A DNA stretch of 64,000 nt from an uncultured Acidobacteriota bacterium (GTDB taxonomy: Bacteria > Acidobacteriota > JAQAZP01). The notes under the pieces are model-generated. The model was not told where the DNA came from. It did not search any database and saw nothing but the letters and a program-made list of their open reading frames with translations. Positions 2,186-64,000 of this stretch are shown piece by piece. Every line of letters begins with the position of its first letter. The first letter of the stretch is position 1. The position numbers were made by a program, and so were the translations under genes. Location of the stretch: contig CAWIIB010000009.1 of assembly GCA_963836075.1 (NCBI GenBank), positions 1,088,001 to 1,152,000 on the forward strand, read 5' to 3'.

Positions 2186-4345
2186 CTAAGGTGCCAGACC
2201 GGTCAACGTGACGGTGTCGCTGTCCGAATCGCCGGACGCCGGGTAGGGCGGCTGGTTGTACGGTGCCGTCGTAACGTCCCAGGCGCGGAGGGTGAACCGG
2301 TTCTCCCCGATCAGGGTGGGGTAGGCCGGGATGTTCTGTATCCATGAAGTGATGTATCTCGACCCGGCGTCGATATTGGTCCAGCCGGCGCGCCAGCTGG
2401 GGAAGAACCCGCCGCTGGCGATGGAAACGTCGATGCGGGCGGCGACCCGCCGGCGCTGGCCGGTGTACTGGTTGTCCAGAGCGGCAACGATCTGCGTGCT
2501 GAACGGCGAGACCCCGGCCGCCGGGGCCATGGTCAGGCGGCTGGCCACGGTGGAGAGGGCCGGGTAGTGAAAGCCCACGTCCACCATCCCGGAATCCTCG
2601 TTGAAGTTGATCGCCGTGGTTTTTTCGGAGATCAGTGTCCAGGTGGTTTCACCGGAGGTCATGTCCCAGGCGACGGGAATCAGGATCGTGTCGGCCGGAT
2701 CGCTGCCGGCATCGACACAGACACTGTCGGCAAGGTGTCCCGAGGCCAGCTGTTCCAGGTAGTGGCCGCCGCCGGCGCCGGAAGTGAATGCCGGGTCGGC
2801 ATTGGTCACTCCAGGCCCCCAGTTGACCGTGGCGGGCGGGCCTTCGTAGACCGCCCCCTCGTAGTTGCCGATATTGCAGTACGACACGGTGTTGGTGCCG
2901 CTGCTGAAATAGAGGTCTTTCCCGGTGGTTGACGAGTTCTGGCGGCTGATACAATCGGAGAGGGTGGAGGAATTCCTGATGTAGATACCGCCCCCATCCG
3001 TGGCGGCACTGTTCCCGGTCACCGTACAGCCGGACATCTCCAGAGCATGGTAAGAGAAGATTCCGCCGCCCCGGCCAGCGTCGTTGTCGACTATGGCATT
3101 GCCGGTAATGGGCTGGATCGCCGAAGAGGTGTAGATCCCGCCGCCTCGTTCACCGGCGGAATTGCCGCTGATGATGTTGCCGGTGACGATGCCGTTTGCA
3201 TGGACCCCGCCCCCATCCTGCCCCGCGCTGTTGTTGATGATCCGGTTGCCGATGAGGGTCCCGCGGGGACAATAGACGCCGCCGCCATACGAGATGGCAG
3301 TGTTGCCGCTGATCACGTTCCCCCTGATCACCGGCGTGCAGTCATAATTGCTGGTGGTGATAGCGCCTCCGTAAGAGGCATAGCCCTCGCGAATGGTGAA
3401 TCCCTCCACCACCGTGCTCGCCCCCTCGTAACTGAACATGAACCCGCGGTGAGGTTCCGCGGAACTGCCCTGACAATCGATGATGCAGTTTTCCGGCCCG
3501 TGTGCCGAAATAACGTGGACCCACTTGCCGTCGAAGGTGATGTCCCGGTTGCCCCAGCCGGTGTAGATCCCGTCGGCCACCAGCACCTGGTCGGTCTCAT
3601 CCAGCATGTCCCAGGACGCGGCGCCGATGGCCTCCTGGATGCTGTCGAAGGGGTGGGCCGCCGTGCCGTCCTCGTCCGGATCGCTCACCGTGGGGTCGCC
3701 CGGCCCGGGATCGAAGGGGCCGTCGTCGTCCACGTGGATGGTGGCCGGCCCCGGCCGGTGCTCCACTTCCAGGTAGGGTTGGCTTGCTTCGGCCCAGCCA
3801 TCCACACGGATGCCGCTTTCGTGGTTATAGAACCCTACGCCGAACCAGTGGGCATCCAGCGAGGAGCGCAGGTCGAGGATGCCGTTGCGACCCAGGTCGA
3901 TCTCGCGCCAGCCGGGGGGCCCGTCGTCATCAACGGTGGCGTACCTGTAGGAGGGAAGGTCGCTGGTGATGTCCCAGCGGATCCAGTGGTCGGAGGTGAC
4001 CAGCGGGTCGAACTCCAGCGGGGTGAGCGAGTACCTGGCGTGCTCCGAGGAGTCATTGGCATAGAAATTGAGGGTCACCGAAACAATATACTCGTCAGCC
4101 GGCACTGCGCTCACATCGAACCGGGCGTACCCCACCTCGTGGTAGTAGTTCTGGTAGTAGCCCGAGGCCGGGGTTCGCCAGGCCACGATCTCGCTGTCCA
4201 GGAGCGTGGGGCCGTAGACCGACCCGGTATTGTACGGGGCCGCGTCCGGCCAGCAGATGGTGGTGGCCGCCTGGGCCGGGCAGAACGCCAGGAGGCCCAG
4301 CAGGCAGAATCCCGCGGTGAATATTTGTGAGGAACGCCAGTTCAT
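2186..4345 (-). CDS. Secreted protein: DNRLRE-like N-domain, right-handed beta-helix (GGAI/GGGI repeats) and conserved 122-aa C-terminal domain
   Basis: Signal peptide ending AQA; FDSIQEAI...VADGIYTG.GNRDI; repeated N.A..GGG(I/V); ends DVTTAPYNQPPYPASGDSDSDTVTLTGLAP. Confidence 0.88.
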   Translation of the reverse strand: MNWRSSQIFTAGFCLLGLLAFCPAQAATTICWPDAAPYNTGSVYGPTLLDSEIVAWRTPASGYYQNYYHEVGYARFDVSAVPADEYIVSVTLNFYANDSSEHARYSLTPLEFDPLVTSDHWIRWDITSDLPSYRYATVDDDGPPGWREIDLGRNGILDLRSSLDAHWFGVGFYNHESGIRVDGWAEASQPYLEVEHRPGPATIHVDDDGPFDPGPGDPTVSDPDEDGTAAHPFDSIQEAIGAASWDMLDETDQVLVADGIYTGWGNRDITFDGKWVHVISAHGPENCIIDCQGSSAEPHRGFMFSYEGASTVVEGFTIREGYASYGGAITTSNYDCTPVIRGNVISGNTAISYGGGVYCPRGTLIGNRIINNSAGQDGGGVHANGIVTGNIISGNSAGERGGGIYTSSAIQPITGNAIVDNDAGRGGGIFSYHALEMSGCTVTGNSAATDGGGIYIRNSSTLSDCISRQNSSTTGKDLYFSSGTNTVSYCNIGNYEGAVYEGPPATVNWGPGVTNADPAFTSGAGGGHYLEQLASGHLADSVCVDAGSDPADTILIPVAWDMTSGETTWTLISEKTTAINFNEDSGMVDVGFHYPALSTVASRLTMAPAAGVSPFSTQIVAALDNQYTGQRRRVAARIDVSIASGGFFPSWRAGWTNIDAGSRYITSWIQNIPAYPTLIGENRFTLRAWDVTTAPYNQPPYPASGDSDSDTVTLTGLAP

Positions 4346-4522
4346 GGATCACACCTCGATGGTTGTGTGTCGAACCGCCAGTGGGAACCAGCGGTGCTGA
4401 ATGAAATTGTATGAGAGCAGGACGAACAGGGATCGGGCCAGCCCGTGCCGAGCCACCCGGGAGTTTTCTATTGATGAATATAGGGTTTGGCGGGAAGGGG
4501 GTCAAGGTGGGGGCGTACAGAA

Positions 4523-4558
4523 AAAAGGGGACTGGCAGCTATGTGCCTGTCCCCTTTT
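4523..4558. repeat. GGGGAC-family palindrome (REP-like, may act as a terminator)
   Basis: AAAAGGGGACTGGCA...TGCCTGTCCCCTTTT. The core arms are identical to those of the element at 20304-20363. Confidence 0.75.
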
Positions 4559-4576
4559 CTATGTTTCACAATGCTC

Positions 4577-5071
4577 TTATTCCGCCAGCGGGGGAATGCG
4601 CAGCACCTGGCCGGGGTAGATCTTGTCCGGGTCGCTGAGGGCCGGCTTGTTGGCCTCGAAGATCACCATGTACTTCATCGCGTTGCCATAGTGGGCCTTG
4701 GCGATTTTGGAGAGGCTGTCACCGCCCTGCACGGTGTAGAAGACGGCCTCGACTTCCGGGGCGGCTTCGGGTTTTGGCGCGGCCACCTTCAGCCGGTCGT
4801 CCACCTGGGCGATGCCGCCGATGTTTCCCACGGCGAGGATCACCTTCTCACGCATCTCCTGGCTGGCCACCGTGCCGCCGATCACGGCCACGTTGCCGTT
4901 CATCTGGACCCGCAGGCTCTCCACATCCAGCCGCAGGCTGCGGATGAAGTCAGTGATCGCCTTCTCGTTCTTCCGCGCCGCTTCTTCGGCCGCCGCCATC
5001 TGAGCCGTCTCGCTCTCACCGCCGCCGAACAGCTTCTCGCCGGCATCCTTCACGAAATCAAACAGTCCCAT
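4577..5071 (-). CDS. BON + LysM domain protein (YgaU/Kbp-like)
   Basis: MGLFDFVKDAGEKLFG N-terminus, BON region (EKVILAVGNIGGIAQVDD), LysM YTVQGGDSLSKIAK...IYPGQVLRIP. GGAGGA RBS before 5071. Confidence 0.93.
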   Translation of the reverse strand: MGLFDFVKDAGEKLFGGGESETAQMAAAEEAARKNEKAITDFIRSLRLDVESLRVQMNGNVAVIGGTVASQEMREKVILAVGNIGGIAQVDDRLKVAAPKPEAAPEVEAVFYTVQGGDSLSKIAKAHYGNAMKYMVIFEANKPALSDPDKIYPGQVLRIPPLAE

Positions 5072-5131
5072 TGTCATGTCCTCCACGGTTCACTTCTGTG
5101 AGCCCGATTATGTTTCAGCCGAAGCCGGCCG

Positions 5132-5734
5132 TTACTTGTTGCCGAACAGGCTGCCCAGCAGCTTGCCGCCGATATTGATCACGTCGTCGGAGATCTGACC
5201 GTCGCCATCGGTGTCCAGCAGGCTGCTCAACAGGTCCGTGGACTCTGGAGCGCGCCGCTGGATCGTATCTTTCTCCTGGCCCAGCAAGCCGGTGAGCCCG
5301 GAAATATCGAGGCCCTGCTGTTTCTTCTGTTTGCCCAACGCGCCCATCACCAGCGGGGCCACCATGGCCAGGATCTGGCCCACGGAACCGCTGTCCAGGC
5401 CGCTCATCTTGCCGATGCCGGCCTCGACATTGCCCTGCTTCTGACCCAGCACGTGCTTGAGGATCCCGGCGCCGTCGGCCGAGCCGCCCTGGCCCAGGAA
5501 GCCGCCGATGTCATCGAGCACGCTGCCGTCGTGGTTGCGGTCAAGGGCGCTGAGCAGCGATGCGGCGCCATCAGAACTGCTGGCATTGCGGTTCAGGGCT
5601 CCGAGAAGCACGGGCAGGGCGCCGGAAAGGGCCTTGGAGACCGACTGCTCGTCGGCGCCCACTTTCTGGCTGAGCTGCCGGGTGGGCTCGCCGCTGAGAT
5701 TCTCCATCAGCATTTCGATAAGGGATGATGACAT
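5132..5734 (-). CDS. DUF937 family protein
   Basis: ALPVLLGAL..NAS...L.SALD..HDGSVLDD...GILKHVLG...LDTDGDG pattern, adjacent to the BON-LysM gene. Confidence 0.82.
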   Translation of the reverse strand: MSSSLIEMLMENLSGEPTRQLSQKVGADEQSVSKALSGALPVLLGALNRNASSSDGAASLLSALDRNHDGSVLDDIGGFLGQGGSADGAGILKHVLGQKQGNVEAGIGKMSGLDSGSVGQILAMVAPLVMGALGKQKKQQGLDISGLTGLLGQEKDTIQRRAPESTDLLSSLLDTDGDGQISDDVINIGGKLLGSLFGNK

Positions 5735-5833
5735 GTACCTCTCCTCCGGTTTGAGAAACGCTCCCGGCGTTTCAATCGTTGCACTTGTTGAGTTGTGAGA
5801 CGGGGTGAACCCCCCGGGACAATCAGGAAATCG

Positions 5834-5877
5834 GGGACGGCTGCCTGTTTATATCGACAAAAACAGGCAGCCGTCCC
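5834..5877. repeat. GGGAC-family 17-bp perfect inverted repeat
   Basis: GGGACGGCTGCCTGTTT-N10-AAACAGGCAGCCGTCCC. Confidence 0.8.
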
Positions 5878-5989
5878 AAATTTCCCCAATTCCCACTAAC
5901 TGAGACCACTTAGCCAGGGGAAAGTCACATAAGTATGATGGTGTTTTTCGGCGGAAGTTACAAGTATTTTCACCCGGTCGAAATAATTC

Positions 5990-7840: not shown

Positions 7841-7912
7841 TGCGCTGCTCCTTAATATATAGAGTCCTCTAATACTAACGGAGCAGCGCCGGATCGGTTC
7901 GGACAGTCGGCG

Positions 7913-8080
7913 CTACTTGTCAGCGTCGCGCCGCCAGCGTACAGCATTCACCAACGCTACCGCACCCAAGATCATGAAAAAGATCCCGCTGTACCAGCGT
8001 CGAAGGCCATCGGCATAACCAAACACGACCAACGCCACCACGATACAGAGGATTCCCAATACCAGGGCCAGTTTGTTCAT
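7913..8080 (-). CDS. 55-aa two-TM small membrane protein (not in the ORF track)
   Basis: MNKLALVLGILCIVVALVVFGYADGLRRWYSGIFFMILGAVALVNAVRWRRDADK-stop; GAGGAG RBS 7 nt upstream. Confidence 0.8.
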   Translation of the reverse strand: MNKLALVLGILCIVVALVVFGYADGLRRWYSGIFFMILGAVALVNAVRWRRDADK

Positions 8081-8148
8081 CGTATTTCTCCTCGATTCAT
8101 CTTTACTTACCTATACGCAGTGCATCCGGCGGATCTGCGTGACCTCCC

Positions 8149-11420: not shown

Positions 11421-11436
11421 TGGGTCCCACCGTGGG

Positions 11437-12921: not shown

Positions 12922-12929
12922 CTGATCCC

Positions 12930-27044: not shown

Positions 27045-27511
27045 GTGATCCGGGACGACATCACCGCCCAGCTCCGGCAGGAGGTGGACGCGGACCAACA
27101 GAGCGTTCACCGCGCCCTGGAGAGGCTGGGCGCAACCGTGGAGTTCGGGACAATCTCTGTACTACAGCCTGTTCTATGACGCGGTCATTTCCTCGTATCC
27201 TGATCTGCTGATGACCATTTCCGCCGGCAACGAGGGCCCGAATAATACGCAGTTCAACGATCCGGCCATTGCTTACAACCCCATCGCCGTGGCCAATGTG
27301 GATGACCAGGGGACGGTCTTCCGCAGCGACGACGAGATCTGGTACTCGAGCAGCCGTGGACCATTCACATTACTCCTACTACGTGGAGTGGGGTCCCCAC
27401 CAGTGGTATCTGCCGGTGGACGTGACGCCGGTGCCCTACAACCAGCCGCCCTACCCGCCGGCCGGGGACAGTGACAGTTCCTCCTGCACGGTGGTGGCCA
27501 ACGCGCCCTGA
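27045..27511 (+). pseudogene. Collapsed remnant of an S8 (subtilisin-like) protease carrying the tail of the conserved C-terminal domain
   Basis: Pieces in three frames: a propeptide-like QQSVHRALERLGATVEF; LLMTISAGNEGP...PAIAYNPIAVANVD...SSSRGP; DVTPVPYNQPPYPPAGDSDSSSCTVVANAP-stop. Confidence 0.82.
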
Positions 27512-34265: not shown

Positions 34266-36698
34266 ATGGTACTGTCGATTGCCGTCACTGAAGGCTTTCC
34301 ATTGTTGCCCCTGTTCGCCCCTGAGGTTCGGCCCTTGAAGTGCCGGAAAAGATTCATCAGCCAGATTTTGCCGTTCTTTCTGCTCTGCCTTCTGCTGGCC
34401 GGTTCCGGCGAGTTGTATTCCCAGCAGCTCCAGGCGGGGAAGAAAGGAGGCCAGGGGATGCAGGGCCAGGATGCCTTTCCCCCGCCCGATGATGAGGACG
34501 AGGAGGATGGGACCGGGCGGTCCCGGGTGGGACGGATCCACTTCTCCGACCTCCTGCCCCTCGGGGAAAACGACATCGGCATCTACGCCCTGTTCCAGGA
34601 GCAGCCCTCCCCCGACGTCTGGGTCGGGTCGGGCTACGTGGACATCCGGTTCAAGGACACCCGTCTGCAGGCGGACAAGATCACCCTCTACCTGCTGACC
34701 AACGACGTGGTGGCCGAGGGCAACGTGGTTTTCGGCCATCCCGGGCAGCAGGTCACCGGCCAGCGGGCCACGATCAACATCGAGACCGGGCTGGGCACCA
34801 TCTGGGAGAGCACCGGTTTTTTCTCCCCCGGGATCTACGTCACCGCCGAGCAGCTGGATTATTACCAGACCGACTGGGTCCGCACCGGCAAGGCCACCTT
34901 CACCTCCTGTGACCAGCCGACACCCGACTGGAGCTTCAGGGTCAAGAAATCACGGCTGCACCTGGAGAACTACGCCTGGCTCACCTACCCCCGCTTCGCG
35001 ATCAAGAACGCCACCCTGGTCCCCTTGCCCTACCTGATCTGGCCGATCAAGACCGAGCGGAGCAGCGGTTTTCTCTTCCCCAGCATCGGGATGTCGCAAA
35101 ATCGCGGGTTCCACGTGGGCGTCCCGTTCTTCTGGGTCATCTCGGACAGCGCCGATGCCGAGCTGCGCTACGATTACTACACCAAGTGGGGCAACGGCTT
35201 CGGCGCCATCGCCCGCTACTACGTGGGCCAGTTCGGCAGCGGTTTCTTTGACGGCTACCTGTTGCAGGACAAAATCGATGACACAACCCGCTGGAAGGTC
35301 GAGTACCAGCACTTGCAGGACCTGCTCTATGACTGGCGCATCGGGGTAGACGTCGACCTGAACAGCGACTGGGACTTCAACCGCGAGTATTCCAGCGATT
35401 ATGCCTCCTTCGGCCGGCGATCCACCAGCGCCCAGGGCTATGCCTCGCGCAGCTGGTCCAACTACTCGTTCAACGCCGTGTTCCAGACCATCGAAACCAG
35501 TTACGAGAGCGGGGGGTTTTCGGATGTGGTGCGGCGCGAGCTGCCGAGCATCGACTTCGAGGGGCGCAAGCAGCGGCTCTGGGGCTCGCCGGTCTACTTC
35601 GAGTTCAACAGCAGATACGGCAACCTCTACATCCAGGATTACCGAAACGAGCGGCAGTTCAACCGCCTCGACCTCTCACCCATCGTGAGTATGCCGATCA
35701 AGAAAATCTCCTGGCTGAAGATCAACCCCGAGATCGGCTACCGCTACACCTACTACGACCACCAGGTGCCGCTGGACAAGGACGGCAACGGGATCCAGGA
35801 GGCCGACCTGCTGAAGGAGGACCTGACCCGGAGGTATTTTTTCTCCACGGTGGAGTTCATCGGGCCGTCCTTCTCCAAGATTTTCGACACCCCGCGGAGC
35901 TTCTACTCGAGCAAGATCAAGCACCTCATCGAGCCGCAGTTCTCCTACAACTACATCTCCCCGGTGAACAACCTCGCGTCGGTGCCCTACTTTGACTACG
36001 GTGACACGGTGCTGGAGGTGAACGAGGTCCAATACGCGCTGGTCAACCGTCTCTTTGCCAAGCGGAAGATCACCGAGGAAGGCCAGCCGGTGAGCCATGA
36101 GTTCCTGACCCTGGAGATCTCGCAGAAGTATTCGGTGGACCCCGAGCTGAGCACCTCCTACGGCCGGCAGTTCAACCCGTACACCGGCGGATATTACGAG
36201 GCCGAGGACCTGATCAAGCGCACTTCGCCCTGGCGCACCCGGCTGCAGATCGCGCCCACGCGGAACTTCTCCTTCGACTACGAGATATACTACGACACTG
36301 ACCTCGCCACGGTGGTGCAGCGCCGGTACGGCATTCGGATGCGGAAGCAGGACCGCTTCTTTGCTTCCGTCTCCTACAACGATAACCCTCTTCCTCCCCC
36401 CGGACGCGAGACGATCATGGGGGCGGTGGGTGTGGAACTGTTCGACAGGCGAATTCGCGCCGAGGTCGCCACCCAGTACCACTTCACGGTGGGCTACCGC
36501 CCGCGGGAGCAATTCAGGTTCGTCTACTTCGGCCAGTGCTACAGCTTCCAGATTGAGTACCTCAACTACAGTTACCGGTCCGGCGCCGACTTTGACGACA
36601 GTCTGTCCGACCGGCGGATCGAAGCCACCCTCACCCTGACCCACATCGGCGACATCTTCCGCTACCGCGACCGCTCGGACGGTTTCGGCGGTTCATAG
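34266..36698 (+). CDS. lptD: LPS-assembly outer membrane protein LptD (start uncertain)
   Basis: OstA-like N-domain (LQADKI...AEGNV), FTSCDQPTPDW, ERSSGFLFPS.G.S..RG, aromatic-rich beta-barrel, QCYSF near the C-terminus. Confidence 0.88.
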   Translation: MVLSIAVTEGFPLLPLFAPEVRPLKCRKRFISQILPFFLLCLLLAGSGELYSQQLQAGKKGGQGMQGQDAFPPPDDEDEEDGTGRSRVGRIHFSDLLPLGENDIGIYALFQEQPSPDVWVGSGYVDIRFKDTRLQADKITLYLLTNDVVAEGNVVFGHPGQQVTGQRATINIETGLGTIWESTGFFSPGIYVTAEQLDYYQTDWVRTGKATFTSCDQPTPDWSFRVKKSRLHLENYAWLTYPRFAIKNATLVPLPYLIWPIKTERSSGFLFPSIGMSQNRGFHVGVPFFWVISDSADAELRYDYYTKWGNGFGAIARYYVGQFGSGFFDGYLLQDKIDDTTRWKVEYQHLQDLLYDWRIGVDVDLNSDWDFNREYSSDYASFGRRSTSAQGYASRSWSNYSFNAVFQTIETSYESGGFSDVVRRELPSIDFEGRKQRLWGSPVYFEFNSRYGNLYIQDYRNERQFNRLDLSPIVSMPIKKISWLKINPEIGYRYTYYDHQVPLDKDGNGIQEADLLKEDLTRRYFFSTVEFIGPSFSKIFDTPRSFYSSKIKHLIEPQFSYNYISPVNNLASVPYFDYGDTVLEVNEVQYALVNRLFAKRKITEEGQPVSHEFLTLEISQKYSVDPELSTSYGRQFNPYTGGYYEAEDLIKRTSPWRTRLQIAPTRNFSFDYEIYYDTDLATVVQRRYGIRMRKQDRFFASVSYNDNPLPPPGRETIMGAVGVELFDRRIRAEVATQYHFTVGYRPREQFRFVYFGQCYSFQIEYLNYSYRSGADFDDSLSDRRIEATLTLTHIGDIFRYRDRSDGFGGS

Positions 36699-39004: not shown

Positions 39005-41257
39005 ATGTCATATAGCACGCTGCGCCTGATCGCCATTTTCTCCTTCATTCTCCTTGCCGGCTCCGTGGCCACCCTGTCTCAAGCCACGGACATCCACGTT
39101 CCTGCCGACCACCCCACCATCCAGGCCGCTCTCGATGCTGCCGTCAACGGTGACACGGTGATTGTGGCCGACGGGGTCTGGACCGGTGCGGGGAACCGCG
39201 ACCTGGTGTTCAACGGCAAGGAAGTGCTGCTGGTATCGGTCAACGGCCCGCAGAACTGCACCATCGACTGTGAGGGATCGACAAGCGATCCCCACCGTGC
39301 CTTCGTCTTCGAGACCGGCGAGGGGCCGCTCACCGTGGTGCAGGGTTTCACCCTCACCGGCGGTTTTGCCGACCGGGGTGGGGCAATTGTCTGCGACGCC
39401 ACCTCGCCCACCATCCTCGACTGCGTGATCACCGGCAACGAGGCCCAGCAGCGCGGCGGCGGCATATCCTGCCACTACGCTTCGGCGGCACTGATCAGCG
39501 GCTGCGTGATCAGCGACAACACCGCGCTGGGCCTCACTCCGAACTTCGGCGGCGGCGGGCTCTCGCTGATCCACCAGTGCACGGTGCGGCTGGAGAACTG
39601 CCGGGTGGAGGGGAACAGCGGTTTCTACGGCGGGGGGATCAAGAACCGCTCCGGCAGCACCCTGGAGGCGGAGGGCTGCGTGATCACCGGCAACCAGGCG
39701 AACCAGGGAGGAGGACTGGCCAGCATCGCATACGCCGACACCTACTTCGTCAATTGCCTGATTGCCGGGAACACCTCGGATGGCCGCGGCGGGGGGATTT
39801 ACGCGTTCTCGGACTTCGGGGCGCCGGCGCCCATCGGCTACGGGTCCATGACCGACCTCAGCTTCTGCACCATGGTGGGTAACCAGGGATTGTCCTATGG
39901 TTCCGCCGTGTACATGGATGGTCTGGACAACCTGATGGTCAGCAACTCCATTGTCTGGGGCAACGGGCCCGTGCCGCTGGAGCCGTCCTATGCCGGGGAC
40001 GACGAGGTCACCTGGTCCGACATCGAGGGCGGTTACACCGGCTTCGGCAACATCGACGAGGACCCGCTCTTTGTCAGCGGCCCGCTGGGTGACCACTATC
40101 TCAGCCAGACCGCGGCGGGCCAGGCCGCCACCAGCCCCTGCGTGAATGCCGCCGACCCGTCGGCCGCGGCCCCTGACGGAACCACCCGCTCCGACTCGGA
40201 GCCCGACACCGGGGTGGCCGACATGGGCTGGCATTACGAACCGGTCCCTCCACCAGACATGCTGGTGACCGGTCCCGGGCCGGGGGTGGACAACCCGCCG
40301 CTGGTGCGGGTCTTCCCGGCGGAGCAGGATGCGGTCCATGTTTACGAATTCGCGGCATATGGTGCAACGCAGTATGGCGTCAATGTCACCTGCGGCGAAG
40401 TGACCGGTGACTCGCGGGACGAGATCATCACCGGCGCCGGGCCGGGTGCGATCTACGGCCCCCACGTGCGCGGCTTTGCCGTGGACGGCACCCCGCTGCC
40501 CGGGCTGAATTTCCTGGCCTACGGCACGAACAAGTACGGGGTCAACGTGGCCGCCGGCGATATCGACGGCGACGGCTACGACGAGATCGTTACCGGCGCC
40601 GGGCCCGGCGCGGTGTTCGGGCCCCACGTGCGGGGCTGGAACTACGACGGCACGGGGAAGGTCACCCCGGTCCCCGGGGTCAGCTACTTCGCCTACGGCA
40701 CGCCCAAGTGGGGGGTCAACGTCGCTTCCGGTGACCTGGACGGCGACGGCTACGACGAGATCGTCACCGGTGCCGGGCCCGGGGCGATTTACGGTCCCCA
40801 CGTCCGCGGCTGGAATGTGGACGGGGGCGCCGCGGCGGCCATCTCCGGGGTGAGCTTCTTTGCCTACGGGACCAACAAGTTCGGGGTCAACGTCAGCTGT
40901 GGCGACATCGATGGTGACGGCATGGCCGAAATCATCACCGGCGCCGGGCCGGGTCAGGTCTTCGGGGCCCACGTCCGGGGGTGGAATTGCGACGGCGCCG
41001 CCGTGATCGCCATCTCCGGCATCAACTTTTTTGCCTGGCCGCCGGAGGAGGTGCGTTTCGGGGCCCGGGTCAGCGCACTGGCCGACCTGAACGGCGACGG
41101 CCGGGCCGAGCTGCTGGTGGGACAGGGCCCCGACCCCGTTGCCTCGACGACGGTGAAGGTCTACCGCTACGACGGTGCGCAGCTCACGCCCTGGTTCGAC
41201 CTGGAGGCCTACCCCGGCCTGACCCACGGCGTCAACGTGGCCGCCGGCCGGTTCTGA
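39005..41257 (+). CDS. Secreted beta-helix protein with C-terminal FG-GAP-like repeat propeller
   Basis: Signal peptide, IHVPADHPTIQAA, GGAI/GGGI repeats, then repeats of AYGTxKxGVNVAxGDxDGDGxDEIVTGAGPGAxxGPHVRGWN. Confidence 0.9.
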   Translation: MSYSTLRLIAIFSFILLAGSVATLSQATDIHVPADHPTIQAALDAAVNGDTVIVADGVWTGAGNRDLVFNGKEVLLVSVNGPQNCTIDCEGSTSDPHRAFVFETGEGPLTVVQGFTLTGGFADRGGAIVCDATSPTILDCVITGNEAQQRGGGISCHYASAALISGCVISDNTALGLTPNFGGGGLSLIHQCTVRLENCRVEGNSGFYGGGIKNRSGSTLEAEGCVITGNQANQGGGLASIAYADTYFVNCLIAGNTSDGRGGGIYAFSDFGAPAPIGYGSMTDLSFCTMVGNQGLSYGSAVYMDGLDNLMVSNSIVWGNGPVPLEPSYAGDDEVTWSDIEGGYTGFGNIDEDPLFVSGPLGDHYLSQTAAGQAATSPCVNAADPSAAAPDGTTRSDSEPDTGVADMGWHYEPVPPPDMLVTGPGPGVDNPPLVRVFPAEQDAVHVYEFAAYGATQYGVNVTCGEVTGDSRDEIITGAGPGAIYGPHVRGFAVDGTPLPGLNFLAYGTNKYGVNVAAGDIDGDGYDEIVTGAGPGAVFGPHVRGWNYDGTGKVTPVPGVSYFAYGTPKWGVNVASGDLDGDGYDEIVTGAGPGAIYGPHVRGWNVDGGAAAAISGVSFFAYGTNKFGVNVSCGDIDGDGMAEIITGAGPGQVFGAHVRGWNCDGAAVIAISGINFFAWPPEEVRFGARVSALADLNGDGRAELLVGQGPDPVASTTVKVYRYDGAQLTPWFDLEAYPGLTHGVNVAAGRF

Positions 41258-47265: not shown

Positions 47266-47426
47266 GCCGGTCCTCCGGTTTTCCCCAAGCCCCGAAATCC
47301 TCCCAAATCCTCAAAAATGATAACCAAAATCGGGCCTCAGGCCGATATGTCTACTGTGGGGCCGGTCTCTCCCGCCGGGGGCGTCCGGTGGAAGGCTGGG
47401 TACTGAGAGTCCACAGGGGTTTTTCG

Positions 47427-49913
47427 ATGATCCTTCCGATCGGGCATGACCAGACTGAAGTCCGGCGGCAGCCGTGGGTCACCTTCACCATCATGGGGCT
47501 CTGTATCCTGGTCCACCTGCTGGTCAGCTTTGCCCCGGGGGTCAGCGAGACCGAGGTCGGCGAAGACCTCACCAAGGCTGTGGACTACTGGATGACCCAC
47601 CCCTACCTCGAACTGCCCGAGAGGCTCCGCGAGGAACTGCTGGCCGGATTCCCCGAGGAGGAACTCAACACCTGGCAGGTGATGCTGGAGCAGCAGGCCG
47701 GGCCCCGCCCGGCGGAGTCGGTTATCGCCCGGGAACAGATGGAGCTGGACCAGATGGCGGAGAAGAGCTTCGCCAGCATCGGGGAACTGCCGATTCACAA
47801 ATACGGCCTGGTGCCGGCCAGGACGACCGTCCTGACCCTCTTTACCCACATGTTTCTCCACGTGGGCTGGATGCACCTGCTGGGCAATCTCTTCTTCCTC
47901 TACCTCACCGGCCCGTTCATCGAGGATGTCTGGGGCCGTCCGATCTTCCTGGGCTTCTACCTGCTGGGCGGCCTCGTCTCCGGCGGCCTGTTTGCCCTGC
48001 GCTACGCCGATCTGACCATTCCGCTGGTGGGGGCTTCAGGGGCCATTGCCGCCTGCATGGGCGCCTTTCTCGTCCGCTACTGGCACATCAATATCAAGTT
48101 CTTCTACTGGATCGGATTTTTCTTCCGCGGCACCTTCAAGGCGCCGGCCTGGCTGATGCTCCCGCTCTGGCTGCTCCGTGAGGTTTTTGCCGCGACGATG
48201 ATGGACTCTCTCGACCCCAGCGGCCGCAGCGGCGGCACCGCCTTCTGGGCCCATGTCTGGGGTTTTCTTTTTGGTGCCGGGGTGGCCCTGATCATCCGCT
48301 CGCTCAAGATCGAGCAGCGGTTCATCCACGGCGCCATCGAGGCCAAGACCACCGTGGTCAACAATGCGGTGGTGGCCGAGGCGCTGGAGGCCCAGGACGA
48401 CGGCCGCAGCGACGAGGCTTTCGCCAGCCTGAGCTCGGAGGTGCAGCGCAATCCGGGCAACTCGGAGGCGGTGCTGGCCCTCTGGGGGATGGCCGTGGGC
48501 GCGTCCCGGGTGGCCGAGGCCGTGCCGGCGATGCAGCGGTTGCTGCGCGAAGAGGTGCGGGCCGGCGAGTTCGACCTGGCCATGACCCACCGCAACGAAC
48601 TGTCGGAGTTCGCGCCGGACGCCACGGTGGAACCGCTGGTGGACCTGCGGCTGGCCGAGTTCATGCTGAAGGACGAGCAGAGCGATCAAGCCGCGGCGCT
48701 GCTGCGCAACGCGCTGGGGCAGGTCTCGGCGGATGCCTCTCCCGGGATGCTGACCCGGCTGTCCCGTCTGGCCTGCCAGGCCGACCCGGTGGTGGGTCTC
48801 GATGCCGTGAATCTGGCCCTGGCCCACCCTGAACTGCCCGAGGACGCACGTGAGGAATTGGAAAAGATGAAAGGTGAGCTGGCCGCCAAACAGCCGGCGG
48901 AGGTGCATGAAATGCCCGATTTTGGCGGTGGGGCGACCCTGGAAGCGGACGGCATCTCCATCCCGGGGTTCGAATCCAACTCCATTGCCACACCGGAGGA
49001 GGAACCGGAGACGGTGCCCGCGGCGGGATTCGGTTTTGTCCCTGATGTGGGCGGTGATGCACCGGTGGATCCCGACGCATTTGAAGCCATGCCGGACATT
49101 CCGGGTTTCGAGACCAACGCGCGGCAGGATCCGGCGGCCCCGGATACCGGATTCCCCGACCCGGCGTGGCCCACGGCGGTCCCGCCGGTGGGCGGTGACG
49201 CGCCGACGGCCGATCCGGCCGACCTGGTGCCCGAGCCGGTTGCGGTGACCGCCCCGGCAGTGGAAACAGCGGAACAGACGTGGGACATGATCGATCCGGT
49301 CATGGGAGCCGACGCCCTGACGGTGGACCCGGCGCCCCCGACTCTGGGGGCCGAGGCTGTTGTTGCGGCGCCTGCGCCTCCGGCCCCGAAGGCCGAGCCC
49401 GTGGTCGCTGCCTCTGCGCCGGGGCCCGCATCACTGCGGAAACCGGGCACCGTGCCGGCCACCGGCCAGACCCCGGCCGGCCCGGAGACACTGCTGAAGA
49501 AACTCGAACTGCACCAGGTGGAGCCGCTGAGCATCGACGGCACGCGGATGACCCTCGACGTGCTGGGCCGCGGGCCGTCCGCCCTGGGGCTGGACAAGGT
49601 GCAGGCGGTGGCCACAGCGGTGATCCGTCCGTCGGGCAAGCAGGCGTTCATCATCATCGACCTGCTGCTGGACCCGCCCTGGGCCACCAAGACCAGTCTG
49701 CGGGTGGTGCGGATGCACAGCGGGCGGCTGGAGCCGACCAAGCTGGTCCCCGAAGCGCCCAACTCGGCAGCGGCTCTGCGGATGATGATCGACAAGCTGC
49801 TGACCGTCAGCCAGGGCATCCCCCTGCCCGACTCCCGCTCGGTGAAGGGGAGCCCCTTCCGCGAGTTCGCCTCCCTTAAGGAATACCAGCTGGAAGTCCT
49901 CCAGGCGAGCTAG
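47427..49913 (+). CDS. Rhomboid intramembrane protease with TPR-like and Pro/Ala-rich C-terminal extension
   Basis: THMFLHVGWMHLLGN, VGASGAI (catalytic Ser), AFWAHVWGF (catalytic His). Confidence 0.92.
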   Translation: MILPIGHDQTEVRRQPWVTFTIMGLCILVHLLVSFAPGVSETEVGEDLTKAVDYWMTHPYLELPERLREELLAGFPEEELNTWQVMLEQQAGPRPAESVIAREQMELDQMAEKSFASIGELPIHKYGLVPARTTVLTLFTHMFLHVGWMHLLGNLFFLYLTGPFIEDVWGRPIFLGFYLLGGLVSGGLFALRYADLTIPLVGASGAIAACMGAFLVRYWHINIKFFYWIGFFFRGTFKAPAWLMLPLWLLREVFAATMMDSLDPSGRSGGTAFWAHVWGFLFGAGVALIIRSLKIEQRFIHGAIEAKTTVVNNAVVAEALEAQDDGRSDEAFASLSSEVQRNPGNSEAVLALWGMAVGASRVAEAVPAMQRLLREEVRAGEFDLAMTHRNELSEFAPDATVEPLVDLRLAEFMLKDEQSDQAAALLRNALGQVSADASPGMLTRLSRLACQADPVVGLDAVNLALAHPELPEDAREELEKMKGELAAKQPAEVHEMPDFGGGATLEADGISIPGFESNSIATPEEEPETVPAAGFGFVPDVGGDAPVDPDAFEAMPDIPGFETNARQDPAAPDTGFPDPAWPTAVPPVGGDAPTADPADLVPEPVAVTAPAVETAEQTWDMIDPVMGADALTVDPAPPTLGAEAVVAAPAPPAPKAEPVVAASAPGPASLRKPGTVPATGQTPAGPETLLKKLELHQVEPLSIDGTRMTLDVLGRGPSALGLDKVQAVATAVIRPSGKQAFIIIDLLLDPPWATKTSLRVVRMHSGRLEPTKLVPEAPNSAAALRMMIDKLLTVSQGIPLPDSRSVKGSPFREFASLKEYQLEVLQAS

Positions 49914-52173: not shown

Positions 52174-53142
52174 ATGAAGCCCACCCGAAAAACTGCACTG
52201 CTGACCCTCATCTTCCTTTTTGTCGCGGGGATGACCCCGCTGTTCGCCGGATCGGTGACCATCGGCGCCGATGGCGAGCTGAGCCTCAACCGCCCATTCT
52301 GCGGCACCTGAAGCAGCAACATCAGATACCAGGTACTGGTATTGGCAAGTGAGATTCCCGAGCGCTGCGAGCTGAAGGCCATCGAGTTCTACGCCAACCA
52401 CGCGTCCTTCTACCACGGGCAGTTCGAACAGATCGAGTTCCTCGCCGGCCACATCGCCGAGGACCGGCTGAGCACCACCTTTGCCGACAACTATGTCTAT
52501 GAAACGCCTACCACGGTCTACTACCGCGGAGTCGAAGACGTAAAATTCGAGGTGGGTTTGTGGAACGAGTTCATCTTTGACACGCCCTTCATCTACAACG
52601 GCGAAGACCACCTGCTGCTGGAGTTCCGCTACAACGGCAGCAGCAGCCAGAGCATCTACAACCTCGGCTGGTTTTACGGGGGCAGCGACCGGGTGATCGA
52701 CGGCTTCCTCGGGCAGGATACCGGCTGGGCCCGGGAGATGATGCCCTCCTTCCGCCTGATCTTCAGCCCGCTGATCACCATCTCGGCCGAGATGAGCTGT
52801 TCGCCCTCGGCGGGGACGCTCCCCTTCTCCAGCGCCATGACGGTGAACCTGGTCAACAACGTCGACGACCAGGCCCGCACCGCGGCCGGCCACATCGATC
52901 TGGCCCTGGGCAACGGCGTACTGTATGGCAACTGGCGCAGCGGCTGGGTGGACCTGGCCCCCGGCGGCTGGAACCACAAGTCGTGGAACCAGCAGATCCC
53001 GGCCCATTTCTCGTTCTTCGGCAGCAGCGAGTTCCGCCTGGTGGTGCAGGACGTGACCCCGGCGCCGTACAACCAGCCGCCCTATCTCGCCTCGGGCGAC
53101 GTCAGCTCACGCGTCTGCACCTTCACCGGCGCCGTGCCGTAA
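52174..53142 (+). CDS. Secreted protein with CxxU motif (predicted Sec46) and the 122-aa C-terminal domain
   Basis: GGAG RBS, ATG at 52174, signal peptide MKPTRKTALLTLIFLFVAGMTPLFA, then ...NRPFCGT-TGA(52309-52311)-SSNIRYQVLVLASEI, in frame with track ORF 52342..53142. Confidence 0.82.
52312..52345 (+). promoter_or_regulatory. Candidate bacterial SECIS hairpin
   Basis: AUACCAG-GUA-CUGGUAU perfect 7-bp stem (52326-52342); loop begins with G, 21 nt after the UGA. Confidence 0.7.
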
Positions 53143-56208: not shown

Positions 56209-56389
56209 TCGGTCCAGGATCATTCCTGATCCCGTGCGAGTTGGCCGGTAGTCCGGACTGTTTCATGTCTTGCACGTTACATAGCAGATGCTATATCTTT
56301 GAAATGATTTTAGTCGGTTTCCAAGCGGACGTTGATTTTGGATCCCGGGGAGGCTTCAGTGGATGAATCCGACTCTCGGAGGTTGATCG

Positions 56390-57029: not shown

Positions 57030-57105
57030 GATCCGGCAACATCGAGATCGTCGATCACTTTTTCACCGCCGAACCGATCAAGCGGCTGAAGAAGGGGGAC
57101 GCCCA

Positions 57106-57348: not shown

Positions 57349-57353
57349 TGCTG

Positions 57354-59042: not shown

Positions 59043-59068
59043 TCGATTCCCCCCACGGGGCGGGCCGT

Positions 59069-60397: not shown

Positions 60398-60536
60398 GGT
60401 GCTGCCGATGATACCCTTTGTAAGAGTATCATGATACAGACTTTATGAAATGTTAGCAAGGATGGGGAAGGCGGGCTGGGGAGACCTCCGGCGGAGCGTC
60501 AGGCGGGTCTCCCCGTGCGCGTACAACGGACCGGGA

Positions 60537-60620
60537 TCAGCTGGTTCCGCGCAGCCGGGCCACCCGCTCCTCGATGGGCGGGTGGGTGCTGAACAGGCCG
60601 GCCAGCCCGCCGCCCCGGAG
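60537..60620 (-). pseudogene. 3' remnant of an HtpX (M48) protease gene
   Basis: LRGGGLAGLFSTHPPIEERVARLRGTS-stop, the characteristic HtpX C-terminus; no upstream coding region. Confidence 0.85.
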
Positions 60621-60679
60621 GTCAACCTCCGGGGACACGGTATTTACGCATTGAGATGGTGGGGATGTTCTCCGGGCGC

Positions 60680-63224
60680 TCATGGCGCCACCCCCGTGAC
60701 CGTGCAGCCGTCGCTGTCCATATCCCCCTCGGGCGGATAGGGCGGCCGGTTGTAGGGCGCCGGGGTCACGTCTTCAGCCATGAAAAAGAACTCGGTGTCG
60801 CCCAGCAGGTCGGCCAGGGCCGGGATGCCCTGCCACCAGTCGGCGGTCAGGCTCGCCCCGCCCAGCAGGTTCACTGACCCGCGGCGCCAGTTCTGGTAGT
60901 AGGGCCCGTCGGCAAGGTCGACATCGAGCTGGTAGGCGAAGCGCCGGGCCTGCTCGGTGTAGGTGTTGGTCAGGGTCAGCACGAACCGCGAGCTGAAGGG
61001 CAGGGTGCCCGAGGAGGGGACGCAGGTCATGGAGGTGGAAAGGGTTTTGGTGGCGGTGATCGTGTTGTTGAGGAGGATCGTGACGGCGTCCTCGGCGTAG
61101 TTGCAGACCGCCGCGTCCCGGTCGCCGTCGCCGTCGAAGTCGGCCAGGACCGGGGAGAATGGATCGCACCAGGTGCCGAACTGAATCGGCTCCTCGAATG
61201 TTCCGTCGCCATTCCCTGCCAGAACACCCAGGGTATCCGGCCCGCGATTGGCGACCACCAGGTCGTCCAGGCCGTCGCCGTCCACGTCGCCCGCGGCAAG
61301 GTCGTATGGACGCACACCCGCGTAGTGGGTCACCGGGGCCTGGAAGGAGCCGTCGCCGTTGCCCTTCAGCAGTTCGATGGCGCCGCTATCTGTCATGGCC
61401 ACCGCCAGGTCGGCGATCCCGTCGCCGTCGAAGTCGTGGGCCACGATCCCCGCCGGGTCCACCCCCGCCAGGTCGTAGCGTGCCGGCTCGTCAAACGTGC
61501 CGTCGCCGTTGCCGAGGAACACCGAAACACGGTCCGGATAGGAGTAGCTGATGGTCTGGGTCACCGCCAGGTCGAGCTGCCCGTCGCCGTCGAAGTCGCC
61601 GCCGGCCAATCCATGGGGCGTATAGCTGAATTCCTGCAGCAGCGGGGCCTGAAACGTGCCGTCGCCGTTGCCCGCCAGGACCGCGATGGCGGTGGGGTCG
61701 TCGTTGACCGTCACCACGTCGAGGATGTCGTCGCCGGTGGCGTCGTCGAGCACAATCTCGATCGGCTGGTCGCCGGTGTCATACATCACGCGCTCCTGAA
61801 AAGTGCCGTCACCGTTGTTGATGAACACCGATACGGTGTCGATCATGTGGTTCAGCACGGCGAGGTCCGGGTCGCCGTCCTCGTCGAGGTCGGCGCCGGC
61901 GGAGTCCACAGGAAAATTGCCGCAGAAGTAGTTCAGCGGGGCATGAAAGGTGCCGTCCCCGTGGCCGTGGAGCACGGAGAGGAAGCCTCCGCTCCCCCCG
62001 GCGGCCAGGTCGGGGACGCCGTCCCCGTTGAGGTCGGCGGCGATCAGTGTGATCGCTTCGTCGGTGGCGGGTGTCGTGGGCGGGATGTCAAACGTGCCGT
62101 CGCCGCGGCCCAGCACCATGCCCACGTGGTTCGCAGATCCCCTGGTAAAAACCAGGTCGGGGATGCCGTCGTTGTTCATCCCGGCTGCCAGCGCCCGGCG
62201 GATGTAACCGGACGGCAGTTGTGGGCCCTCTTCGAAGGTGCCGTCCCCGTTGCCGTAGAGCAGAGAGACGGCCGGGATTGTGGTGTCGTAGGCGTTTGAG
62301 TAGCTCACCACCAGGTCGAGGATCCCGTTATCGTCCAGGTGACCGGGATCGATGAAAAACGGGCGGCTGGCGAGCGGGATATCGCCGGGCGGTTGGAGCG
62401 TGCCGTCGCCGCTGTTGAGATACAGTCTGATCCCGCTGAAGAGGTTGTCGATGACCAGCAGGTCCGGGTGCCCGTCCCCGTTCACGTCGCCCGTGGCCGC
62501 ATCCAGGGTATCGCTCTCGCCGTAGGTTACGGGAGGGCCGAAGGTGCCGTCGCCGAGGCCGGGGAGCACCACCACGGCGGGGTCGTGCCAGCCGTCGTTG
62601 GTGGTCACCAGGTCGAGGTGGCCGTCGCCGTCCAGGTCGGCGGCGACGATGTCGGTGGCCGTCGCGCCGGTGGGGTAGTGCACCGGGTAGTCGAAGGTCC
62701 CGTCACCGCGGCCCAGCGCTACGGAGATGTTGTTGTCGTCACCGCTGTTGCCGGTGGCCACGTCGAGGTGCCCGTCGTTGTCCAGGTCGGCGAGCACGAT
62801 GCCGTGCGGTTCGAAGCCGCCCAGATGGATCACCGCCGGCTGGAAGGTGCCGTCCCCGTTGCCCAGCAGGCTGGTGAAGCGGCCGGCCTCGCTGTTCCCC
62901 GCCACCAGGTCGAGGTGGCCGTCCTCGTTGATGTCGCCGGCCGCCAGGTCCCGCGGGCCCTCCTCGGTGAAGTAGTCGGTCCGGCTGTGCAGGGTGCCGT
63001 CCCCGGCGCCGAGCATCACCGTGACCCTGTCCGCTTCAAGCCGGGCCACGGCCACGTCGCGGATGCCGTCGCCGTCGAAGTCTTCAGCCACCAGGCCCAG
63101 GGGCGTTCCGGTGAGCCAGGTACTCCTCCGGCGCGTCGAAGAGCGAATCCGGGCCGGCAGCCGCCGGGACGGCAGCCATGATGCAGGCGATGAGCATTGT
63201 GATGACGATCGGTCGGGCGTTCAT
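60680..63224 (-). CDS. Secreted FG-GAP/VCBS repeat protein with the 122-aa C-terminal domain; frameshift near 63115
   Basis: ATG at 63224 (ATGA-coupled) encodes the signal peptide MNARPIVITMLIACIMAAVPAAA; the body (DxDGDGxxDL repeats) is in the frame of track ORF 60680..63091. Confidence 0.85.
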
Positions 63225-64000
63225 GGTGTCACCCCCGTGATGGTGCAGCCATCGGAGTCGAAGCTCCCTGCCGGCGGGTAGGGCGGCTGGTTGAACGGCG
63301 CCGGCGTCACGTCCATCGAGCGGAGGGAGAACCGCGTGTCGCCGGACAGCGAATCCAGCTCCGGGATGGTCTGCCACCAGCCGACGATTGCGGTCTCTCC
63401 CGGCGCGATGTTGGCCCACCCCCGCCGCCAGTTGACGTAGCGCGGGCCGTGGGCCAGGGTGACATCGATCTGCGACTGGATGCGCCGGGCCTGGCCGGGA
63501 AAGGCATTGGTCACGTTCGCCGCGAGGAAGGTGGAGAAGGGCAGCGTGCCCGATGCGGGCTGGCAGGAGAGCTCCACGTCAACGGTGCTGGCCAGGGGGC
63601 GCCTGACCAGGGTGAAGATGGATTTGTTTCGGTTCTCGTAGCTGTGGCGATTGAAGGTGACCAGGTCCGGGTGGCCGTCCCCGTTCAGATCACCGCGGAA
63701 CAGGACGTAGGGGCCCTCCCTGGTGCCGTAGGTTTCCGGTGTCCCGAAGGTGCCGTCACCGTTGCCGTAAAGGACCCGGACGTGGTCGTTGGCCTCGTCG
63801 GTAACGGCGATGTCGAGGTTTCCGTCGCCGTCCAGGTCGGCGGTGACGATGCCCGAGGGCATCCCGCCCTCGTCGATGCTCGCCGCGGCGTCGAAGGTGC
63901 CGTCACCGTTGCCGGCGAGGAGCACGACAACGCCGCCGTCCCGGCAGGCCACGGCCAGGTCCTCGTGGCCGTCACCGTCCAGGTCGTCGACCGCGATTCC
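63221..64000 (-). CDS. FG-GAP/VCBS repeat protein with the 122-aa C-terminal domain (5' end beyond the window)
   Basis: Open to the window edge; DLDGDG repeats; ends DVTPAPFNQPPYPPAGSFDSDGCTITGVTP. Confidence 0.9.
   Translation of the reverse strand, partial: GIAVDDLDGDGHEDLAVACRDGGVVVLLAGNGDGTFDAAASIDEGGMPSGIVTADLDGDGNLDIAVTDEANDHVRVLYGNGDGTFGTPETYGTREGPYVLFRGDLNGDGHPDLVTFNRHSYENRNKSIFTLVRRPLASTVDVELSCQPASGTLPFSTFLAANVTNAFPGQARRIQSQIDVTLAHGPRYVNWRRGWANIAPGETAIVGWWQTIPELDSLSGDTRFSLRSMDVTPAPFNQPPYPPAGSFDSDGCTITGVTP

Follow-up and report, generated by a model that had tools for sequence, protein, structure and literature searches.

Folded C-terminal tags direct most surface enzymes of Bacteroidota to their place and anchor them there. 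The dockerin module is helical and EF-hand-like, binds calcium and contains a duplication, RbmA is a biofilm matrix scaffold that binds matrix polysaccharide, and the PEP-CTERM, MYXO-CTERM and GlyGly-CTERM signals, roughly 25–40 residues long, combine a transmembrane helix with a basic tail and are cut by an intramembrane enzyme. To our knowledge, little is known about how diderms outside the Bacteroidota superphylum display large exoproteomes.

Here we describe a 122-aa domain found in a 64-kb stretch of DNA (the window) from an uncultured acidobacterium of sediment and soil. The domain is uncatalogued, being absent from Pfam, NCBIfam and PDB sequences, and about 190 different, putatively exported proteins per genome end in it. 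An earlier note on this DNA had read it as a lineage-specific secretion or surface-docking module; the checkable parts of that reading (size, position, signal peptides, novelty and range) held up, and its functional part is interpretation.

Results

The four full copies and single tail remnant noticed earlier in the window were confirmed by translations, alignment and model search (Table 1), and the full copies indeed align without a gap, at 38–51% identity. Each matches the four-copy model with E 1e-61 to 1e-63, which excludes chance likeness. A stop codon directly follows every full copy; three of the four lie on the minus strand, and in the gene of copy 4 the stop codon shares ATGA with the ATG of the downstream gene. 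The remnant has lost everything before position 91 and is thus a gene fragment. The passenger fragment, for which a Pfam search gave no family at E ≤ 1e-4, matches residues 482–571 of its paralog (G000 C9:1164068-1167025); together with the remnant, it is part of one decayed gene.

Table 1. Copies and fragments of the 122-aa C-terminal domain (CTD) in the window.
Feature	Position	Strand	Description
CTD copy 1	2189..2554	(-)	last 122 codons of 719-aa gene 2186-4345 (-); E 4.8e-61
CTD copy 2	52774..53139	(+)	closes gene 52174-53142 (+)
CTD copy 3	60683..61048	(-)	closes FG-GAP propeller gene 60680 to about 63224 (-)
CTD copy 4	63224..63589	(-)	closes second FG-GAP propeller gene, open at window end
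tail remnant	about 27413..27511	(+)	model positions 91-122 plus stop
passenger fragment	27163..27447	(+)	different frame from remnant; 49% identity to 986-aa paralog

The passengers differ, as had been claimed. In the protein ending in copy 1 (P0003) a signal peptide precedes a DNRLRE-like N-terminal region, and the passenger is of the PMP-repeat (beta-helix) type. The gene of copy 2 starts with the signal peptide MKPTRKTALLTLIFLFVAGMTPLFAG, upstream of an in-frame TGA (52309-52311, context C-G-T-TGA) that is a candidate selenocysteine codon; its passenger has no Pfam family. Copies 3 and 4 follow FG-GAP propellers; the passenger beside the remnant had been labelled a subtilase, a label that Pfam did not confirm. 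The claim that every visible N-terminus bears a signal peptide stands for P0003 and the TGA protein, and the 803-aa gene of copy 3 encodes its signal peptide, MNARPIVITMLIACIMAAVPAAAG, in a different frame only. A contig from a public run has one base fewer at 63119 and reads as an intact 847-aa frame including the signal peptide, and this one-base difference is what parts the propeller frame from the signal-peptide frame. Dropping the base at 63119, as in that contig, puts the copy-3 signal peptide in frame again. Two metatranscriptome contigs, for both of which DNA carry-over is possible, match the 803-aa gene: X13 over 249 identical bases (61042-61290), and X8 over two pieces of 251 bases that show 3 and 5 differences. 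They cover only parts of the gene, and the uncovered parts carry no meaning.

A large genomic family had been predicted from the five window copies. Searching the 6.2-Mb genome with the model of the four full copies, we found 188 near-full-length copies, with 221 domain hits in all, spread over 220 ORFs. The C-terminal position is almost strict: 184/188 near-full copies end at most 2 residues from the stop codon, and the domain is terminal in 145 of the best 150 database representatives. Truly internal copies number only 2/188. Eight of the best 150 representatives carry two full copies, in tandem in 7 of these 8. A free C-terminus is thus not obligatory, and given its internal and tandem copies the domain behaves partly as an ordinary Ig module. 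Many carrier genes also sit in tandem arrays. Copies share a mean pairwise identity of 48%. Short ORFs made of a signal peptide and the domain alone are mostly frameshift-truncated genes, with the exception of a lipoprotein-like one (G000 C9:1846327-1846875).

The family is as restricted to one lineage as the earlier note had supposed: 3/401 Acidobacteriota genomes carry it, all in one genus, and in sequence space it amounts to 514 clusters among 1.84 billion representatives. In the search for related loci a six-row alignment worked as query, and a single copy gave no relatives. P0003 has three probable orthologs in other species; identity runs at 62–65% over the CTD and 55–59% over the passenger, which suggests vertical inheritance of the CTD along with its passenger.

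Are the carriers exported? A signal-peptide-like start occurred within the first three start codons of 114/169 carriers vs 560/2080 control ORFs (odds ratio 5.6), an enrichment in line with the proposed co-occurrence, and a second heuristic gave 116/170 carriers vs 1278/4255, with 6/116 lipobox-like; both are crude home-made heuristics with high background. Several carriers that seem to lack such a start are frameshifted ORFs or were wrongly passed over by the heuristic. A Pfam family was found in 39/75 scanned representatives: beta-helix (11), FG-GAP (7) and peptidases C1/S8/M14/M28/C25 (6), as well as GH5, CBM96, LamG, F5/8-C, LTD and BNR. No typically cytoplasmic family was seen among the 75; the passengers are of kinds usual outside the cell. 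Among 120 listed homologs that the P0003 passenger has in other phyla, 8 carried dockerin (PF00404) and 2 carried T9SS tags (PF18962/PF13860), the latter in Cloacimonetes; other tags thus hold a position equivalent to that of the CTD.

The comparison with Pfam and TIGRFAM that the earlier note had proposed turned up neither a CBM nor CARDB nor a T9SS CTD as a strong match. No Pfam family covers the domain in the five window proteins at E ≤ 0.1 or in the 75 representatives at E ≤ 1e-5 (CARDB, PKD, fn3, other Ig-like families and dockerin included), NCBIfam gave no match to it, and a 41-row profile drew two noise matches only from PDB chain sequences (E 0.68 and 2). T9SS CTD models had no match in the five window proteins at E ≤ 0.1. 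TIGR04183 was absent from the genomes G000, G001 and G002 in a search that found the family in G019 and G035; canonical T9SS CTDs, single ones, occur in 2/41 sampled Acidobacteriota genomes. Profile-profile alignment with three T9SS CTDs (hhalign) returned a probability of 1.1%, and the best 50 rows of Foldseek and VIA-align held no T9SS CTD, a result that still leaves room for similarity. In the literature, titles and abstract openings held nothing on the 122-aa domain; short C-terminal sorting signals of the PEP-CTERM, MYXO-CTERM and GlyGly-CTERM kind are treated in the abstracts of bioRxiv 10.1101/2023.06.07.544157 and PMC11980579.

The AlphaFold2 model is a confident eight-strand Ig-like beta-sandwich (pLDDT 96.1), and the Foldseek check proposed alongside structure prediction, like VIA-align, returned only generic matches. 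The best is RbmA FnIII of Vibrio cholerae (PDB 4be5; Z 12.5, rmsd 2.5 over 105 residues, 11% identity), and others include AlkC Ig (Z 11.1), CARDB (Z 9.9), PKD (Z 9.2) and MG; the likenesses to RbmA, CARDB, MG and PKD are only generic. ESM Atlas neighbours are REJ/PKD-type clusters (score 0.91, low recognition of 1674), a weak lead. Homodimer prediction scored 0.00, which carries no weight for or against.

Three features stand out in the model and the alignment: (i) Cys9 and Cys115 show the claimed window pattern, both being absent from copy 1 and present in the other full copies. Joint presence or absence is a strong tendency genome-wide and is not absolute: of 184 copies, 126 have both, 27 neither and 31 one only (Fisher p = 2e-12). 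Four copies have an alternative pair (5,111), shifted by four on both strands, which supports a putative clasp between the first and last strands; we infer a disulfide between Cys9 and Cys115. (ii) Most columns conserved at ≥90% fall in a 16-residue loop (93-108) between the last two strands, unstructured and exposed in the model, with the consensus D-V-T-P-x-P-Y-N-Q-P-P-Y-P-x-x-G. And (iii) the carboxy terminus, ...G-x-A-P, is conserved, with the terminal Pro in 80% of copies; the domain ends ...CTVTGxAP without a hydrophobic helix.

No partner or machinery for the domain was found anywhere in the genome, which extends the earlier observation that none lies in the window. SprA (TIGR04189, PF14349) and GldM models had no match in the genome, with controls silent too. 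GldK matches cover the C-terminal half only (model positions about 209-406), beside one 59-residue N-terminal fragment, and all of them fall below cut-off. The one PorV-family match belongs to FadL/TodX; its neighbours are HpnN/BstA-like and HpnA-like, and the locus is one of hopanoid or sterol transport. There are 21 C25-like matches, the best of them a PorU-like peptidase without a CTD (G000 C1:1027244-1029985; 202 bits vs a cut-off of 420). As a sortase candidate it was rejected: G001 has a 65% ortholog, none was found in G002, and relatives at 29–34% identity occur in 17/38 sampled genomes that lack the domain; the PorU-like peptidase is not co-distributed with the domain. A second C25 protein (G000 C9:2177781-2181776) bears a divergent CTD itself; it has many paralogs and resembles a cargo protein.

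Among the genes up to ±2 places from 170 carriers, only generic families came up (TPR-CHAT, kinases, RND pumps, sulfatases). Both secretin genes, of a T2SS or type IV pilus, fall below the GspD cut-off. PEP-CTERM matches number 0–2 per genome in the genus, with one in G000, and no EpsH-family exosortase was found in the genome at E ≤ 0.001, where the control matched only below cut-off. The genus is without another mass C-terminal tag, as searched with TIGR04183 and PEP-CTERM in G000, G001 and G002.

Discussion

What does the domain do? We consider it probable that it is a lineage-specific surface-retention or sorting module; from the data above we infer both its partner and the surface localisation of the carriers. 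Carriers would cross the inner membrane by Sec, mostly via type-I signal peptides, and the domain would fold in the periplasm; under the oxidising conditions there, Cys9 and Cys115 may clasp the first and last strands. One common partner could then recognise the exposed Pro-rich loop, perhaps read together with the conserved carboxy terminus, and proteases, glycosidases, lectin-like domains, beta-helices and FG-GAP propellers would be delivered to, or kept at, the surface or matrix. Rather than a translocation signal, we favour a non-covalent dock on some lineage-specific part of the envelope, be it a glycan or a receptor protein, for two reasons: there are tandem and rare internal copies, and no dedicated translocon was seen. 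The evidence does not separate the two.

Alternatively, the domain may be an outer-membrane translocation signal for a novel secretion system, resembling the T9SS CTD in function: a lineage-specific translocon or shuttle would recognise it, after which it might be cleaved off and the cargo attached. The C-terminal position, the number of cargoes and the hydrolase and adhesin passengers make up the signature of T9SS cargo, homologous passengers elsewhere bear T9SS tags, the carboxy-terminal Pro is kept, and the genome has C25-like proteins of which the best is PorU-like and free of a CTD. We hold this unlikely: no translocon candidate or PorV emerged, SprA and GldM gave no match (with silent controls), the PorU-like protein does not follow the distribution of the domain, and tandem and internal copies would be unusual if the domain were cleaved.

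An ordinary Ig-like spacer or adhesion module, duplicated in one lineage and terminal by accident, would need no common partner and no sorting role. The generic beta-sandwich, shared with RbmA, CARDB, PKD and MG, the weakly scored REJ/PKD-type neighbours, the tandem and internal copies and the tandem arrays of carrier genes would all suit it. However, neither the number nor the position of generic Ig modules is fixed, whereas here 184 of the 188 copies are single and terminal, on passengers that are unrelated. The best-conserved part is moreover the unstructured 16-residue loop, which points to a shared interaction, and we find the spacer explanation improbable. That a T9SS type-A CTD has changed here past recognition and is served by a degenerate T9SS is very hard to credit: the domain is likewise an Ig-like sandwich ending exported proteins, with a PorU-family match in the genome and canonical CTDs in a few sampled Acidobacteriota, but it has 122 aa vs about 72 model positions, lacks any HMM or appreciable profile match and any T9SS CTD among its best 50 fold matches, and searches for PorV, GldK, SprA and GldM found none of them (with silent controls for the last two).

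Returning to a retention or sorting module, we offer a bolder and doubtful extension. The domain might be the address tag of a novel export or surface-attachment system, unrelated to T9SS and sortase-like systems, that arose or was radically remodelled in one deep acidobacterial lineage and serves about 4% of genes, its loop and carboxy terminus being read by an outer-membrane or periplasmic receptor.

A single domain marks the many putative exoproteins of this organism, and its HMM gives immediate annotation of the exoproteome of the lineage. With its invariant loop, the domain is a defined bait for a new receptor, translocon or envelope glycan, and its few clusters among so many representatives illustrate how such systems escape family databases.

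How does the domain compare with known systems? RbmA shares the extracellular beta-sandwich and is the closest fold match, but it is a stand-alone two-domain protein and no tag on diverse passengers. PEP-CTERM, MYXO-CTERM and GlyGly-CTERM likewise occupy the strict C-terminus of many exported proteins and are lineage-restricted, whereas the 122-aa domain is a soluble folded module without a hydrophobic helix, and no exosortase was found. Dockerin is also a C-terminal non-catalytic module common to many secreted enzymes, docks non-covalently and tolerates tandem copies; in contrast, the 122-aa domain is predicted to be all-beta and has no Pfam match, and no cohesin-like scaffold was identified. 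The T9SS type A CTD of Bacteroidota (TIGR04183/PF18962) is likewise a folded Ig-like sandwich at the extreme C-terminus of Sec-exported hydrolases and adhesins, and a genome may have dozens to hundreds of such tags. It has no sequence or profile similarity to the 122-aa domain, which is longer, has a Pro-rich loop and two conserved cysteines, and belongs to one Acidobacteriota genus.

Copies in the window and in the genome

Translation confirmed the four full copies of the 122-aa Ig-like C-terminal domain (CTD) announced in the earlier note, each at the extreme C-terminus of its protein (see table), and their gapless alignment, at 38–51% identity. The tail remnant (~27413–27508) likewise matches the last 32 CTD positions; it ends a decayed carrier gene (carriers being proteins that end in the CTD) whose 95-aa passenger fragment, 49% identical to a 986-aa paralog, lies in another frame than these 32 residues. 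By Pfam and NCBIfam, the passenger of P0003, the 719-aa carrier of the first copy, consists of PMP (beta-helix-type) repeats and those of carriers P0004 and P0005 of FG-GAP repeats. A 750-aa beta-helix and FG-GAP protein (39005–41254, +) lacks the CTD, so such passengers are not always tagged in this genome.

Features located in this analysis (window coordinates unless a locus or contig is named)
Feature	Location	Strand	Remark
CTD copy	2189–2554	-	translation; final 122 codons before stop
CTD copy	52774–53139	+	translation; final 122 codons before stop
CTD copy	60683–61048	-	translation; final 122 codons before stop
CTD copy	63224–63589	-	translation; final 122 codons before stop
Decayed carrier gene	27163–27511	+	passenger fragment and CTD tail in different frames
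Frameshift region of the FG-GAP gene with the third copy	63091–63224, base 63119	-	
Apparent operon: S24 signal-peptidase-like, 914-aa PorU-like C25 and HprK-related kinase A-like P-loop genes	L006:9742–14049 (G000 C1:1026742–1031049)	-	

We searched a four-copy CTD model against all stop-to-stop ORFs of the host genome (G000; 6.23 Mb, 10 contigs, 64% G+C, the window being C9:1088001–1152000) at i-E<1e-5. The large family predicted from the window was found: 221 matches in 220 ORFs, 188 near full length and 33 fragments. The terminal position also held genome-wide, as 184 of the 188 near-full copies lie within 2 residues of the stop (169 exactly at it), two carry a 7–8-residue extension and two are truly internal, with further domains downstream and no new signal peptide between. 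Among the best 150 database representatives, the CTD is terminal in 145, and 8 have two full copies, 7 of them in tandem.

Taxonomic range

A CTD profile run against 1.84 billion cluster representatives retrieved 514 proteins at E<=1e-3, 396 of them at <=1e-30. Among 41 related genomes, the CTD occurs in the three of the window's genus alone (at least 104 matches each), with zero matches in the 38 others, which span 31 other families; across 401 genomes sampled from the phylum, it occurs in 3 genomes and in 1 of 227 genera. GTDB was also scanned for the CTD motif, with each species represented by one genome; of 109 pattern matches, 104 were confirmed as CTDs. The 75 loci kept came from two assemblies, of which one bears the title Acidobacteriota bacterium, and from one isolated copy, L090, the sole match of the scan outside the genus assemblies. 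L090 (CAWAUY010000016.1; 4227 bases, 57.8% G+C; 47% identity) belongs to a MAG titled Candidatus Sulfomarinibacteraceae and may point to another lineage or to misbinning of this contig.

Passengers and export signals

Pfam annotation of 75 of the best 150 representatives assigned a passenger family to 39 and none to 36. Beta-helix (11) and FG-GAP (7) passengers stand beside peptidases (C1, two S8, M14, M28, C25), GH5, CBM96, LamG, F5/8-C, LTD, BNR, and PQQ and SBBP propellers. In Planctomycetota, Verrucomicrobia and Cloacimonetes, proteins homologous to the P0003 passenger end in other terminal modules; 120 such homologs among the matches listed include 8 with dockerin and 2 with PF18962/PF13860 T9SS tags. 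In three probable P0003 orthologs, the CTD is 62–65% identical and the passenger 55–59%; thus, the CTD co-evolves with its carrier gene instead of being exchanged.

Co-occurrence with signal peptides, claimed from the window, was borne out by a home-made heuristic that accepts a signal-peptide-like start among the first three start codons: 114 of 169 carriers (passenger >150 aa) were positive versus 560 of 2080 control ORFs of at least 400 aa (odds ratio 5.6, p = 1e-25). With genes called separately by a crude method, 116/170 carriers were positive versus 1278/4255 other genes, and lipobox-like signals occurred in 6/116 and 154/1278 of these positives, respectively. On inspection, 40 missed carriers included several false negatives of the heuristic, and many were ORFs starting mid-domain, which indicates frameshifts. 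One 183-codon ORF (L129; G000 C9:1846327–1846878, +) joins a lipoprotein-like signal (…LPSVAC) through a short linker to a divergent CTD without Cys9, and is the sole plausible signal-plus-domain-only protein encountered.

The 803-aa FG-GAP gene with the third copy has a frameshift between its body and a signal peptide in a different frame. A contig from a public sequencing run (X2) has one base fewer at 63119, which yields an intact 847-aa ORF from signal peptide to CTD. Some truncated carriers may thus be assembly errors or strain variants and, since many carriers start mid-domain, the assembly may contain many indel errors or pseudogenes.

The gene at 52174–53142 (+), whose passenger has no paralog in G000, is a candidate exported selenoprotein: its signal peptide is followed by C-G-T-TGA (TGA at 52309–52311), a perfect 8-bp hairpin begins 16 nt downstream of the TGA, and, according to ARAGORN, the genome has one tRNA-SeC(tca). 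Alternatively, the TGA may mark a nonsense pseudogene.

Sequence and predicted fold

Mean pairwise identity among 184 copies is 48%. Columns conserved at ≥90% include P11, G14, P17, F18, N28, R35, G48, W54, R55, G57, P76, G83, N85, F87 and a near-continuous block, D93-x-T95-P96-x-P98-x-N100-Q101-P102-P103 ... G108; the final residue is Pro in 80%. AlphaFold2, given a 41-row alignment, predicts an eight-strand sandwich (pLDDT 96.1, pTM 0.85) in which the D93–G108 block, free of regular secondary structure, is the 16-residue loop that joins the last two strands. Of Cys9 and Cys115, in the first and last strands of the model, 126 copies have both, 27 neither and 31 just one (Fisher p = 2e-12). 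Four copies have Cys5 and Cys111 instead, a shift of four on both strands as expected from a disulfide linking parallel neighbouring strands. Cys9–Cys115 is a candidate disulfide.

No Pfam or NCBIfam family matches the CTD of the window proteins at E<=0.1, no Pfam family covers it in the 75 representatives, and a profile search of PDB sequences returned noise. Foldseek matches of the model to the PDB were weak (Spo0M, E 9e-4, then RbmA), and ESM Atlas neighbours were REJ/PKD-type clusters of weak score. Exhaustive fold search with VIA-align gave RbmA FnIII (Z 12.5), the AlkC Ig domain (Z 11.1), the transglutaminase C-terminal barrel (Z 10.9), CARDB (Z 9.9), PKD (Z 9.2) and macroglobulin domains, matches of the predicted model that are generic Ig-like. 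Thus, the family is novel in its sequence and belongs to an ordinary fold class. A literature search at title and abstract level found no report of the CTD or its motif.

Search for a cognate machinery

The window's LptD gene (34266–36695, +) indicates that the host envelope is diderm with LPS. Near it lies an 841-aa protein (47388–49910, +) with a rhomboid domain (residues 147–304) and a long extension to which no domain was assigned. Canonical T9SS CTDs were absent from all three genus genomes; the search detected them in two other sampled genomes and hence works. SprA (two models) and GldM gave no match in G000, and these models were also silent in every control genome, so absence is not demonstrated. 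GldK matches covered the C-terminal half of the model alone, below cut-off. The sole PorV-family match is a FadL/TodX barrel adjoining HpnN/BstA-like and HpnA-like genes and was rejected. The best PorU match among 21 C25-like matches, an exported 914-aa C25 peptidase without a CTD, reached 202 bits, where the cut-off is 420. One other genus genome (G001) encodes a 65% ortholog, none was found in the third (G002), and 17 of the 38 CTD-less genomes have 29–34% relatives; the peptidase is thus not co-distributed with the CTD and was not taken to be the sortase.

PEP-CTERM matches numbered 0–2 per genus genome, no exosortase was found and G000 has two secretins, of T2SS or type IV pilus type, that score below the GspD cut-off. 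The non-carrier neighbours of 170 carriers, taken up to two genes away, belong to generic families only, with no machinery among them. The genome also encodes 34 TPR-CHAT (caspase-like) proteins (e.g., L124, C9:440367–444356), 10 of which have a carrier no more than two genes away (background ~11.5%).

What does the CTD do?

The CTD is probably a surface-retention or sorting tag of exported proteins. A common interaction that localises carriers best accounts for the observations: the CTD is rigidly terminal, exists in very many copies and sits on unrelated extracellular passengers, it has a covarying Cys pair and an invariant exposed loop, and the genus lacks any further mass tag. Alternatively, the CTD could truly be a signal for translocation by an undescribed secretion system; this is unlikely, as tandem and internal copies occur and the machinery search revealed no translocon. 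For the same reasons we lean towards docking, in which the CTD would attach carriers to a lineage-specific envelope component. That the domain is an Ig module with no partner at all is more doubtful still. Least credible is a T9SS CTD diverged past recognition: no T9SS CTD is among the best 50 VIA-align matches of the model, and hhalign against three T9SS type-A CTDs gives a probability of 1.1%.
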